From assembly GCF_988243305.1 (NCBI RefSeq), contig NZ_OZ547136.1: a DNA stretch of 64,000 nucleotides. One strand, written 5' to 3'. Position 1 is the stretch's first letter. The number at the start of each line of letters is the position of its first letter. Below are positions 27,901-33,900 of this stretch, in pieces. The position numbers are program-made.

Positions 27901-30900
27901 GTCATCCGCTGTTTTTTCACTGTCATTCCGCCAGCAGTTTTTCACAGCCCGGGTAAGGCGCATCACGTCGGTGATCTCCACACTGGCCAGATAGTTACGG
28001 ATGATGTGTTTTGCCATTGATACCGCCAGATGATTTTTCCCGGTACCGCAACTGCCGGTCATAACAAGACTGGTACCGTTCTCCAGCATATCTGGCCAGT
28101 TCTCCGCATAGCGGCGACAGGCCGCAAGATTTCTGGCTGCGTCAGGATTAACCTCCAGATAATTATCAAACTCGCAGTCCCGAAAACGCAGAGCAATTCC
28201 GGCGTTATCAGTCAGTTCTTCCGCCTTGAGGGACGACAGTTCCATGGTCAAATCACTGGCCTCAGCGATCAAGCAGTCAGGGCAGCATGAAATTTTTTCT
28301 CTGTCCTCGCCATTACGATCGATCCACACCAGTATATGCGTACGATATTTACCGTGTTTTTCGCAATATCCGCGACCTTCACGCATCAGGCAGGAACGAT
28401 AAGGCCATGGCTTTTCGCCCTTCTGAGCAAATGCAATCTCTGCCCGTAACTCATCCATTTCTGCCCGTAACTCATCCATTCGCGCCTGTAGTCTTGTTTG
28501 TTTCTCACGTTGGTCAATCGTCATCATCGCTGTCACCTCAGAATGTCAATTTGTTACTGGATTTACCGAATTTGTCAGACATGGCTCCCAGGCCAGCCAG
28601 GACATCGACCTGTCGCTGTCGCCCACCTCCGTGAGCGGCTGGCTGTTGCCAGTAATCTTCGAAGTGACGATCGGGTCCAAAGAACGTCGCAGCCTGCTTC
28701 ACGAACTGTGTGCCGGTATTTCCTGTAGCACGTACCCAGGCGGCATACCGCTTCACGCCATCAAGCATGGTCTCCGGTTTTATTCCCTCCCTGATACGGG
28801 CTTTCCAGGCTTTGAAGGCCGCTGACTTGGAATTGCCACCAGCACGTTTGGGATATTCCTGCCAGGCCTGTTCAAATTCCGGTGAATATTCCTGTCGGGC
28901 AGAACGCGCAGACGCGTCAGCGGATGCATCAATAGTGTTTTTAGTCTCCGTTGTAATCTCTGTAGTAATCTCTGTATTTGTATCAACATTCGGCGTATCC
29001 CCTGTTCCGTTATGACGTCGGGGGGTGTTCCGTTTTAACGTAATAGCTGTATCGCTGATTGCATTATTGCTGTTACTTTCTGGCGAAACAGAAGAAGGTG
29101 TGGTGATGGCCGCAATTGCCTGTGGGTTGATCCCGACAAACAAAATATTGCTGCATTTCACCCCATCGAGCATTTCCACCGTGCGTAAATCCAGAGTAAT
29201 AAACCCTGCATCGCGCAGACGCTTCAGCGCATCTGCGGTTTCCCTTTTCCCGAAACCAAACTGCTCAGCAAACGCCTGGTAGCTTCTTTGCAGTTTGTCG
29301 CCCTGAAAACGCTTGCGATATCCCAGCAACGCTCCGGTGTGCTCATCCCTGACCTCTGTCGGGCGGTACCAGTAAACGATCTCTGAAAGCAGAGCGATAG
29401 CCGTCGCATCCGGACGCCCACTGGGTAGTCGAATATATTTCCACCAGTTCGCAGGTGTAACATTGCCGGAAATATTAATTTGACCAATAGCCATAACTTC
29501 CGGTGTGGGGGCGTAACGGCTCATACAACCTCCTTCCGCGGCATGAGAATTGTGTAGCCACGCGCAGGTTGTAGTCGGGCTTTTGCATCAATAGTAAGCG
29601 TTGCAATTTTTCGGATATGAAGATAACCAGCTCTTTCCAGTGCCAGGGTTTCCCTGAATATCGCTTGCTTAGAACAACAGCAGAAATCAGCAAGCACCTG
29701 ATGATCAATAACTCTCTCGCCTTCACCGTCTGAAGAACCCGACATCAAAACACGCAACATAATTAGGCGCTGAATCGGGTTATCGAAAGCACATCCGCAC
29801 ACAAACTGAAAACAGTTCACGCCACACCTCCCAGACGCTTAAACATTTTTCCAGACAGAAATACCGCCAGAGGGTAACTGATGGTGTAGCTACGCCCCTG
29901 TAGTTCGCACACGACTTTCTGGCTTTCAGCGTTGACTAGGCAAACCCGCAGAACGTGACCGTTGCTGGTGGCGAACCACTGCCCCACACGGGGGCAACGG
30001 TTGTATCGGTGATACAGGGAATTAACGATGTGGCGGATCATGGACGCACCTCCACCGTAGTTACGTATTTAACCGGGCTACCTTTCATTGAGATGGTTTC
30101 ACACATCTCTGCCGCTTTCAGTTCCGCTGTTTTTCTGGATTTATAGCGACGGTGCCAGACAGATACATCCGTGCGAACTGATACATCGTTTCTGTATTCC
30201 GTAGTGGAGATGATGATTTCGTAACTAATCATGGGCGAACCTCCTTGTCAGAACCATTCAGCCTGGAATCAACAAGTGCAGCGCCAAAAACAGCATCACC
30301 AACACGGTCGTACAGTTTGCTAGCCAGCGGAGATTCAACGGCCTTAAGCATTGGATAAAGCTGGCTTGTCCAGATTTGATGGATTTCACGCAAATGCAGG
30401 TATACGCCTCTGGCGTTTCGTGCGACAGCTGACATATCAGACGCATCGGCACCTGATAAACTCTTCTCCATCAGGTTAAAGGCGTTGATGTATGCCTCTT
30501 TGAACCGGGCTGCACGTTTGCCAGTAAAGCCCATAGCAAGGAACGCGAAGCCATCACGGGTGATTTGATAGCAAGGTAGTTTGCGGCCTGTGCAATCGGT
30601 GTAATCACTCACCGAAAAATTGCGGGCAGTGAATGATGCGGAGCATTCAAGCGTGCGGATCTTTTTCAGTACATCGTCATGACGCTTGGAGAAGAAGTTG
30701 GCAACAGCCAGGGATGAAGTAACAGCCTGACCATCAACGATGGCAATTTCAGGTTGAGTGAGGGTTGGGATCGTAGCCATGATGGCAGCCTCCGTTGACT
30801 GTGGAAAACTTCCACCACCGGAGCTGCGAAACTCACTGGTGGCAGACTGAACAGGGTTCGCAGTACCGGCGTCAACGGAGACCGGCGAGCCTTTCGGCTC

Positions 30901-33900
30901 CCCTGCCCAGCCCACCATAATTCTGGCGTGCGTGAGCGCGGACGATAAAAAAGACGCTGGCGCGTCATATATCGCCGTTGACAATTCCGGGCTGCGACCC
31001 CCGGCACCCGCTTTATAAGGTGCAGAGACAGTGTAACGTCCCGAAATTGCAGAATCAATATTTGGTCTTGAAATGATCATATAGCTGCTGATATCTTTAG
31101 AACTGTTCTTGGATGTTTCGGAGCCGTTTTATGCGAAACAGCTCCCCGTTATTGATGTTGAGTGAGCCGGGTTACTCCCGGCTTTTTTTCACCGCTGCCA
31201 ACCAATAACCTGAAATAACCCCATTTTCGGGTGATACCAGCGAGTCCCTCGCGGTTCTGCTTCCTCCATAACCCGATAAAAAGCAGCCATAAACGGTTCC
31301 ACAGCAACAATTGCGCGACGTGACAACAATCCGTCCGGCGTCATGAACTCATGGGTGTCTGTAGGAATCTGATAGGCGTTCACCAGATTGCGGCATTTAT
31401 CATCTGACAAACCGGTTTTTGCTTTCAGTTGGCGATATCCGGCATAGCCCTCACGAATAGTGCCCTTTTTAATTTGCTCGACTGTTTCAGCAACGTGGCT
31501 GACTTTTTCTTCCACCTGAGTGATCCGTTTCTGTTGGCGAACGGCTTCAAGAGCCATCGCGGCAACCATTTCGATTTCGCTCATTGGCTTACGGATCTGT
31601 TCTTCCAGTTCACGCCAGCGATCTACCAGGCGAGCAGTGAATTCAGGGCAGAGCTGTGCGACGACAATGATGCTGTCGCGCTTACCTTGTTCTCCTTCAA
31701 ACAGGTAATGCTCATATTGAACTTTAAAACCTAAGTTATTGATTTTCTCGGAAACAGCCATTGGCGGTTTCCGGATGATGTTTTTAGCAACCAGGCGTTC
31801 GATACTACGTTTAACATCTGAGTGCTGACTACCCACCAGCTCTGCGATCTCAACGCTGGTCATGGATGCTTTGTCGTTAAAAATTGCGGTGTTCACTGCC
31901 ATCTCCTTACGGATAAATTCTTTTAAGATTCCGCACATTCGTACTTATTGGTGCCGAACCTTCCTTCAGTTATCCTTTTGATCCCTATAAACAAAAGAAC
32001 CAAAGGAGGTTCGACATGAAAGTTCAGGCCGTTGGTTTATTCTGGTTTCGCGATGCGATTCAGTATCATGAGCTCAAAAATATTTTTACTGATGCTGATG
32101 TGCTCTCCGACAGTTACACCGAGTGGAAACACGACGCTGAAAAATTGATTAAGCGTGTCGAAAGAAGCGGGCAACGAGTTATTAAAGTTGAAGCGGATAC
32201 AGCCGAGTTCATCACCTGGTGTACAAGCGAAGGCATTGGAATCAATGCCGAAGGTAGAATGCAGTTCGCATCCTTTAAGGCTTACCAACAACTTCTCAGC
32301 GAACGCTAATGTGATTGGGGCAATCGAAATGGTTGCCCCATCGTATTTAATAGTTATTTTTTCGCTCATATCACCACCATCACTTCTCGTCCTCTGTGTG
32401 CGCTAAGCTTGGATTTGAAATTTTGCGTAACGAATCAGGAATTCCATCTTCAGGGTGAGGATAAAGATCTGGCCTTAAGCCATGTGGCGTGACCTTCCAT
32501 GCAACTACTTCACATACGCGTAAAACGAAACGAGCAGGAATTGTGTTTTTTGAAAACCACTGATTCACCGCTTGCGGCGTCACACCAAGATTTCGCGCTA
32601 TGGCATTTTGCGCAATTAATGCACGAAGTTTGTCGTAATCATTTCCTTCCATAACAAAGCACCAATATTAACTTTATAAATCAAGAATACATCAAGTTTA
32701 AATTAACATGCAAGTTACAAAAGGATCGAATACACTAAAATCAAGTAAAGATTTATCCTTGTAAAGAAACCCACAGGATTTGGTCATGAAGAACGTCAAA
32801 AACACGGAAAATCGAATAGCCGCGATGCTGAAAGCAAAAGGATGGACTCAGGCTCAACTGGCCCGCAAGTTAGGTGTGAGTGCGCAATCAGTGCAGTACT
32901 GGACAACAGGAAAAACATTTCCACGGAGTGATAAGCTCGCGCATTTATCAGAGATTAGCGGTTATCCACAATCCTGGTTCTTAGGTGAAGACTCCTCACC
33001 AACCTTTTCCTCGCAAGAGAAACACCAGACAAGAACAGATAGCGTCGTATTTAATGTCCTTGATGTTGAGTTTAGTTGCGGTGATGGAACTCATGTCCGT
33101 GGTGACTTGATAGATGTAGTGCGCTCAATAGAACTTGATCCTGAATATGCCCGACGTCTTGTTGGAAATCGGGCATTCAAAAATATAGAAATAGGTAACG
33201 CCAGAGGAGACAGTATGGCTCCCACAATCTCACCTGGCGACCTTCTTTTTCTTGATAAGACAGTAACTTATTTTGATGGCGATGGTATTTATGCATTTTG
33301 TTTTGATGGAGAATGCTACGTGAAAAGGCTTCAAAAAATTGGAAGCAAAATCATGGTGTTATCTGATAACCCCAATTATCAACCATGGAGCATCGAAAAA
33401 GAGGGGTTAGCTCTGCTTTATATCCAGTCTAAAGTGATCTCATCAGTACCATTCAACATAAACAGATTTGGTTAGTCTTTGATTTTAACGGGCTTTGCCC
33501 GTTTTTTTCTGCCTGAAATATACGATATCAATTTTTTCTTGACAGCCTGTTTCCCAAAACATAATATCGCACCATCAATTATAACTTGATTTGATTCAAT
33601 TTAAAATTGTTGGCGGATATATGAAGACACTAAAAGCAACTCCAGAAACAACTAATTTTATCAACTGCGGCTGTGTTACGCTTAAGGGCTTAGAACTTGA
33701 TTCCTTTGCATTAAATATTGCAAATTTGCTAAGTGCTGTACGCACATTCCATCTTCTGGATTGTGCTCGCTCAAAGGAACTGGGCATTGAGGTAATGGAA
33801 TTTATCCATGAATATGCTCTATCTGCTGCTTCTCCTGCACAACAAAAACAATCCTTCCCTGAAAGCTGGCTGGTTAACCTTCGCACCCAACGCGAAGCCT

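Follow-up and report, generated by a model that had tools for sequence, protein, structure and literature searches.

In the Salmonella prophage Gifsy-1, RNA that reads through the short transcript IsrK carries orf45 and anrP (Hershko-Shalev et al., 2016; PMC4825925). This long RNA is translationally silent, and short IsrK activates it in trans; processing of the orf45 region yields the stable RNA STnc1160, translation of orf45 is experimentally established, Hfq binding of IsrK is known for Gifsy-1 only, and the same paper likens IsrK to seqA of P4 (PMC4825925). In the immI operon (c4-icd-ant) of P1 and P7 (Citron and Schuster, 1990), the C4 antisense RNA is cut from the operon's own leader (PMC8198154). 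Here, we describe a locus in a lambdoid prophage of Escherichia coli and compare it with these systems. The window, that is, the whole stretch of DNA analyzed, comprises 64,000 nucleotides (nt) of contig NZ_OZ547136.1 (assembly GCF_988243305.1), and the region under study, a gap between two Rha-family genes, is 100% identical to many chromosomes, for example NZ_CP027134. We conclude, with a probability of roughly 0.85, that this gap is the minus-strand RNA control region of an antirepressor-type cassette, and that the segment at its upstream border is a separate piece with about an even chance of being a divergent transcription unit.

The gap is bounded by the following two genes:

31189..31938, minus strand: upstream Rha/Roi-like DNA-binding gene (Phage_pRha, E 4.7e-8; start placed at 31896 by the Prokaryotic Genome Annotation Pipeline, PGAP)
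30229..30780, minus strand: Rha-domain effector gene, 183 amino acids (aa) (Phage_pRha, E 5e-30, residues 21-106)

Homologues of the upstream gene carry the labels 'Roi' or 'DNA-binding protein'. Its open reading frame (ORF) ends with a TGA stop codon at 31191..31189, and the next ATG preceded by a Shine–Dalgarno (SD) sequence (GGAGG, 30793..30789) lies at 30780..30778 on the minus strand, which leaves 408 nt (30781..31188) between the upstream stop and ATG 30780. The original prediction, made from the sequence alone, described a non-coding gap of about 400 bp between two Rha-family genes in an otherwise tightly packed operon. The size is correct, as is the packing: the other operon genes overlap by 4 nt, and the gap is the sole loose spot. 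The term 'non-coding' has to be dropped, as the Rfam families isrK and C4 lie inside the gap on the minus strand and PGAP annotates a coding sequence (CDS) up to 31080.

The two RNAs were identified by an Rfam search at the curated gathering thresholds (isrK, RF01394, 50 bits; C4, RF01695, 45 bits). These RNAs and the segments complementary to C4, listed in the direction of the operon, are as follows:

31030..31058, minus strand: putative isrK promoter (TTGATT at 31058..31053, 17 nt, TACACT at 31035..31030)
30947..31023, minus strand: IsrK small RNA (sRNA), RF01394, 58.7 bits, with a predicted start at ~31023
30997..30992, minus strand: box a1, UCGCAG, inside IsrK
30982..30975, minus strand: box b1, GUCAACGG, inside IsrK
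30947..30966, minus strand: IsrK terminator, GACGCGCCAGCGTC followed by T6, called by the terminator scan
30835..30922, minus strand: C4-type antisense RNA, RF01695, 78.8 bits, full-length match
30880..30871, minus strand: C4 loop segment b', CUCCGUUGAC
30863..30857, minus strand: C4 segment a', CUGCGAA
30789..30830, minus strand: target leader, containing boxes a2 and b2
30830..30824, minus strand: box a2, UUCGCAG, the complement of a'
30799..30790, minus strand: box b2, GUCAACGGAG, the exact complement of b' and overlapping the SD sequence

The C4-type RNA is the equivalent of the Gifsy-1 STnc1160/orf45 region, and its 3' end, GCCACCA, is CCA-like. The Rfam c4-a1b1 model scores 17.2 bits here (gathering threshold 46.7) versus 48.1 bits in Gifsy-1, and the same Rfam search gave no match to isrJ in the window. 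The record of Stx2 phage F039 (LC710660) annotates 'isrK', 'C4 antisense RNA', and the short CDS start; the APSE-3 record likewise annotates such RNAs. The IsrK/C4 module is present in 1078 of 5426 complete genomes.

We evaluated the conservation of this arrangement by comparing 61 unique modules of related phages and prophages. The C4 fold is maintained: compensatory double changes were found in 9 of the 27 pairs tested, and 99.9% of the cells hold standard pairs (28 distinct rows). The many G.U pairs in C4 would read A.C on the opposite strand, which fixes the RNA to the minus strand. Moreover, the b segments (b', b1, and b2) and the a segments (a', a1, and a2) co-vary across phages at all three places, and 22 specificities, counted as distinct C4 loop segments, occur among the 61 modules. 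The C4–leader duplex has a mean energy of -38.8 kcal/mol for cognate and -26.8 kcal/mol for non-cognate combinations, and the corresponding means for the C4–IsrK duplex are -34.5 and -24.0 kcal/mol; in the window, C4 pairs with its own leader at -43.4 kcal/mol.

Tandem arrays of two to three IsrK-C4-effector units with a 656-bp period were observed in L029 (cores at 3337, 3993, and 4649) and L070 (cores at 4099, 4755, and 5411), and arrays are also found in L033, L036, and L064. Each copy bears a different a/b antisense specificity. The arrays resemble a stack of RNA locks on small Rha-type genes, each lock orthogonal to the others.

By analogy with Gifsy-1 and P1, these features suggest how the cassette may be controlled. 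A promoter at ~31058..31030 would make IsrK, and most transcripts would stop at the IsrK terminator. Read-through transcripts would carry the C4-type RNA (30922..30835), whose b' and a' segments would pair with b2 and a2, cover the GGAGG sequence, and leave the Rha gene (ATG 30780) untranslated. As IsrK holds second copies of the boxes (a1 and b1), it could compete for C4 or remodel the leader; by titrating C4 or remodeling the leader, IsrK would act as the key to this lock and turn expression on, with translation passing through an orf45-like leader. The regulated gene would be the Rha-domain effector, which is presumed to act as an antirepressor. Homologous RNA modules drive unrelated effectors (the ORF6N-domain AnrP of Gifsy-1, 33513..34076 in L211, versus the Rha-domain gene at 30229..30780 in the window), which indicates that the cassette is portable. 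Shiga-toxin prophages are among the lambdoid prophages whose presumed antirepressor is under the control of this switch, which makes it relevant to SOS-independent induction.

Several observations weigh against this reading. The effector carries a Rha domain, whereas AnrP of Gifsy-1 carries ORF6N; the two proteins are not homologous, and the antirepressor role of the Rha effector is for this reason an assumption. The isrK promoter was read by eye, and with a score of 8 of 12 it falls under the threshold of the promoter scan, which did not call it; the promoter-like sequence is nearly invariant across the 61 modules. What is said here of promoter activity, of the RNA ends, and of processing and regulation is inference throughout. 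Finally, none of the 61 Roi-linked modules closes frame 0, which in each of them stays in register with the effector ATG; an RNA-only model leaves this unexplained.

This open frame leads to an alternative in which the gap is protein-coding: the gene would start at ATG 31080 and encode a 283-aa Ash–Rha fusion, and the matches to RNA families would be secondary. Two ORFs on the minus strand are relevant:

30229..31080, minus strand: long 'Ash' ORF, 283 aa, ATG at 31078..31080, annotated by PGAP
30781..30918, minus strand: orf45-like leader ORF, 46 codons (MVGWAGEPKGSPV...), ATG at 30918..30916, in frame with the Rha gene without a stop

As the original prediction had stated, the sole long in-frame reading of the gap is this extension of the downstream Rha gene to ATG 31080. 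PGAP calls the ORF up to 31080 as a CDS in identical E. coli genomes, and Pfam Phage_ASH (PF10554) matches residues 16-111 with 62.1 bits (cut-off 26; E 8e-17), a match that spans ~31035..30748 on the minus strand, exactly the IsrK-C4-leader stretch. Among 42 distinct transcribed parts, frame 1 gains stops in 23 and frame 2 in 42, where composition leads to an expectation of 2.9 stops, and module lengths of 276, 279, or 282 nt are always a multiple of 3. Where modules stand in tandem, the corresponding ATG follows a strong SD sequence (GGGAGGTG) and overlaps the preceding stop as ATGA. However, the stretch does not vary as a protein-coding sequence would. An excess of variation at the third codon position is absent, with entropies by codon position of 0.43/0.44/0.33 in IsrK, 0.78/0.79/0.60 in the spacer, and 0.66/0.69/0.48 in the leader, in contrast to 0.65/0.54/0.97 in the effector CDS, and substitutions in the Ash stretch track RNA complementarity. 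The long ORF also includes a putative promoter and an intrinsic terminator, ATG 31080 has no SD sequence in the window, and the frame is closed across IsrK in both Stx2 phage F039 and Gifsy-1, whose RNAs were mapped experimentally (PMC4825925). We consider a protein-coding gap unlikely. A weaker coding version, in which ribosomes transit the region on operon read-through RNA and the peptide is irrelevant, is possible.

With the gap read as an RNA control region, we conclude that ATG 30780 is the regulated start, and products of 229 aa or 283 aa may be made from some transcripts. The Phage_ASH 'protein family' looks like the translation shadow of the RNA module. Across this IsrK/C4 RNA switch, thousands of E. 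coli prophage genes are labelled 'ash family' or long 'Rha family'; the start codons of such genes, and Phage_ASH itself, merit re-examination. The original prediction had set a Rha start at 31080 against its own proposal of an antisense RNA; what stands of this objection is the open frame, whereas the extension lacks protein-like evolution.

That proposal was for a short rightward RNA in the gap, reminiscent of lambda oop and ending at a strong terminator that opposes the operon. The main content of the gap is IsrK and C4 on the other strand, and a plus-strand candidate fits its upstream ~130 nt. Many phages share only 30700..31060 with the window; this mosaic joint, just upstream of the isrK -35 box, indicates that the terminator belongs to a separate segment of ~130 bp, which carries the following elements:

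31068..31097, plus strand: promoter-like site, TTGAAA, 18 nt, TG-a-TATCTT (extended -10)
31104..31189, plus strand: candidate cis-antisense RNA, ~86 nt, predicted to begin with a conserved 5' box (GUUCUUGGAU) and to continue through a long interrupted hairpin and an AU-rich linker to the terminator
31164..31189, plus strand: intrinsic terminator, GAGCCGGG-TTACT-CCCGGCTT followed by a T-run, with 8 pairs, 6 of them G-C

The last T of the terminator lies within the stop codon of the upstream gene. On the minus strand, A7 precedes the hairpin and no U's follow it, so the terminator is one-directional. In the 4-kb region, 7 terminator-like sites were found versus 4.5 +/- 2.3 by chance, a number not above chance, and the significance of this terminator therefore rests on its conservation among 80 related loci with the same upstream gene. 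This reverse terminator abuts the stop codon in 63 of these loci, and the strong opposed terminator of the original prediction is confirmed; the border segment is present in 236 of 5426 complete genomes, such as O145:H28 RM13516 and some ST131 isolates. Among the 80 loci, an unrelated ORF-like segment is found in 10 loci and an extra gene in 5. In the 10 loci of junction type E (L004-L006, L078-L089), an unrelated stretch of ~195 nt replaces the reverse-terminator segment. An ORF that begins in this stretch, at the upstream stop codon (TAATTATG), is continuous with the Ash frame, and the fused frames are annotated as Ant proteins of up to 340 aa.

The 63 loci represent three sequence types (A, B, and C), which are ~55% identical outside a few blocks (our count on alignment A2). 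The stem of the terminator is invariant among the types, with a variable loop and 6-8 T, and the scan flags a terminator in types B and C too. All three types keep TTGAAA-18-TG-n-TAT(C/T)TT, and in types B and C (TTGAAA-18-TATTTT with TG) this is the only promoter-like match in 500 nt, where 0.3-0.4 are expected. Between types, 13 of 14 promoter element positions are identical, versus 12 of 22 other positions in the same stretch. The boxes GTTCTTGGAT and GTTGAG(C/T)GAGCC are also kept in all three. The promoter search suggested along with the original prediction turned up this plus-strand promoter-like site at the right distance from the terminator.

The predicted RNA starts at ~31104 and has its 3' end at 31186..31189. 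Its minimum free energy is -29 to -32 kcal/mol, with z values of -3.0 to -4.7 in the three types, and although the inner stem of the middle hairpin differs between types, it still pairs (GUUU/AAAC, ACUUC/GAAGU, CUGC/GCAG). For a cis-antisense RNA the target changes along with the RNA, and the body may drift while promoter, fold, and terminator persist. From this pattern of conservation, we put the odds at about even that the border segment is a small divergent transcription unit with an RNA of ~86 nt.

The candidate has no Rfam family (the best score, 24.5 bits to sroD, comes via the terminator only), and its sequence strings match no paper in the literature searched; the Pas sRNAs (bioRxiv 2026) and the sRNAs in the main text of a Hfq-CLASH paper on enterohaemorrhagic E. 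coli lie at other prophage positions. A second exact copy of the box AACATCCAAGAAC was not found. A pattern scan of viral contigs for wider versions of the border segment gave mostly chance matches; beyond these it recovered types A, B, and C alone, in an unchanged context. Inspection of the segment by eye revealed no convincing conserved match to a LexA box, nut site, IHF site, or operator. A 31-aa plus-strand ORF (31113..31208) was rejected, as it reads through the terminator, has no Pfam match, and does not keep its frame between types. No plus-strand ORF is conserved: types A and B use different frames, and the ATG is missing from type C.

The strand on which the hairpins act bears on a further alternative, namely that they function in the minus-strand operon RNA, for instance as a 3' stabiliser or processing site of the upstream mRNA, with the T-run being incidental. 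In type A, the two strands fold with equal stability (z -4.4 for minus and -3.2 for plus), and two type A variants (GGAGC->GGAAC and G->A at the end of the stem) leave a G.U pair if read on the minus strand but A.C on the plus strand. Folds of types B and C, by contrast, are 1-7 kcal/mol more stable on the plus strand, and the variants GAGGU (type B), UUGAUGUU (type C), and GCUGGG (terminator of L065) give G.U on the plus strand and A.C on the minus strand. Furthermore, with an A-run before the hairpin and no U-run after it, the minus strand has no terminator, and a minus-strand role of the hairpins leaves the conserved promoter-like boxes unexplained. We regard this alternative as improbable.

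A stronger competitor, though one to which we give somewhat less credence than to a divergent unit, is that the terminator is a passive border element or relic that protects the upstream gene, cro, and cI from stray antisense transcription, with no dedicated sRNA, and that something else keeps the promoter-like match in place, for instance the Ash start codon or contacts made upstream of the isrK promoter. The -35 box overlaps Ash codons 3-5 (the -10 box, TATCTT, is outside all ORFs), and the block TCATAT around the ATG is likewise conserved; tandem copies lack the unit, as do junction types D and E, and neither a paper in the literature searched nor an Rfam family covers it. The mixed substitution evidence on the strand also fits a passive border. 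On the other hand, conservation between types focuses on the -35, TG, and -10 elements at a fixed 18-nt spacing, and the order of promoter, hairpin, and terminator is kept in three versions whose bodies have diverged. Ash starts in other contexts lack TTGAAA, which means that the Ash frame does not require it, and leftward of the terminator there is no other plus-strand promoter-like site or gene for it to serve.

For the divergent unit, the counter-evidence is as follows. The strand-informative border substitutions split ~3 to 3, with GGAACC, AGAGCC, and CAACGUU favoring the minus strand against the three plus-strand variants given above, and covariation favors neither strand for the hairpin. 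The position of the -35 box inside the conserved Ash ORF start could account for part of its conservation. The tandem module copies have no border unit, so the unit is not needed for the switch itself, and its role, if real, concerns the border with the pR operon. An RNAduplex scan for trans targets over the whole window on both strands gave no target that stands out: the best non-self duplex, at -44.8 kcal/mol, falls inside the range of shuffled queries (-43.7 to -51.7 kcal/mol). Of the short rightward RNA first proposed, the joint conservation of a promoter-like site and the terminator stands, and the strand evidence is mixed.

If made, the ~86-nt plus-strand RNA would be perfectly antisense to pR read-through RNA over 31104..31189, just upstream of the cassette, and would limit how far read-through transcripts or ribosomes enter the cassette, for example via duplex cleavage by RNase III. 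It is conceivable, though doubtful, that an oop-like RNA of Roi-type lambdoid prophages gates pR read-through and its ribosomes in this way, the Ash frame being kept open for ribosomes to traverse IsrK and C4 and bypass the lock rather than to yield a protein domain. If true, the cassette would have two modes, locked in the lysogen, where its own promoter is used, and unlocked after induction, when transcription comes from pR.

Elsewhere in the window, a 97-aa plus-strand ORF (32016..32309) without a Pfam match lies between the cro-like and Roi-like genes, with a strong plus-strand terminator of 11 pairs (32316..32340) at its 3' side; together they look like a moron inserted counter to the operon direction. 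In the late region of the prophage, an STnc100 sRNA (21926..22438, minus strand, 139 bits) adjoins three tRNA genes; STnc100 is related to the prophage PasD sRNAs (2026 preprint). The host sRNAs MicL (inside cutC) and C0465 were found at 47600..47907 and 61166..61243. These, together with related phages named '..._yecE', suggest a prophage site near the chromosomal yecE/cutC region.

The switch is of an already known kind, namely the design of Gifsy-1 isrK-orf45-anrP and phage P1 immI. The plus-strand antisense RNA is a plausible add-on to it that is apparently undescribed; the literature searched describes neither this RNA at the border, if it exists, nor the tandem arrays, nor the many loop specificities that are orthogonal to one another. 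Both Gifsy-1 and the present locus have, on one strand, the order a1b1/IsrK with its own terminator, C4, and effector ATG, and at both the two RNA families exceed the gathering score. In both, the C4-type RNA overlaps an ORF of ~45 codons (MVG.GEPKGSPV...; MVGRMGEPKGSPV... in Gifsy-1 orf45 and MVGWAGEPKGSPV... in its counterpart here), and b2 covers the ribosome-binding site of a DNA-binding 'antirepressor-like' gene. The two differ in location (the Gifsy-1 locus follows Q, whereas ours follows the Roi-like gene of the early-right operon), in the effector (ORF6N versus Rha domain), and in the end of orf45, which in Gifsy-1 forms an ATGA overlap in another frame, whereas here it continues in frame without a stop. 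Gifsy-1 also has no reverse-terminator segment.

Lambda oop is a 77-nt RNA antisense to the pR operon; its promoter overlaps the start of the downstream ORF, its intrinsic terminator lies where the gene following cro ends, and it overlaps ~50 nt of the cII coding sequence. The plus-strand candidate shares much of this organization: both are short (77 versus ~86 nt) and antisense to the pR operon, with a promoter, putative in the candidate, over the downstream ORF start and an intrinsic terminator at the end of the gene that follows cro. At the sequence level the layout is of the oop type, with a promoter-like site at 31068..31097 and a terminator at 31164..31189 bracketing a predicted unit of <100 nt. 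In this respect the likeness to oop put forward in the original prediction is borne out. It does not extend further: there is no sequence relationship to oop and no Rfam match, and unlike oop the candidate would overlap the upstream coding sequence by 1-3 nt at most, that is, by the stop codon.

The P4 CI RNA and the N15 CB RNA are C4-like processed antisense RNAs of the same clan, built on a common design. They act mainly via premature transcription termination, whereas the target box here lies on the ribosome-binding site. In this the locus resembles immI of P1 and P7, where a' and b' complement a1 and b1 upstream as well as a2 and b2 downstream, with b2 at the ribosome-binding site. Loop sequences set the specificity of C4 and are the basis of P1/P7 heteroimmunity. 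In contrast to the plasmid prophages P1 and P7, the host element here is a lambdoid prophage, the effector is of the Rha type, and the upstream boxes reside in a separately terminated sRNA, IsrK.

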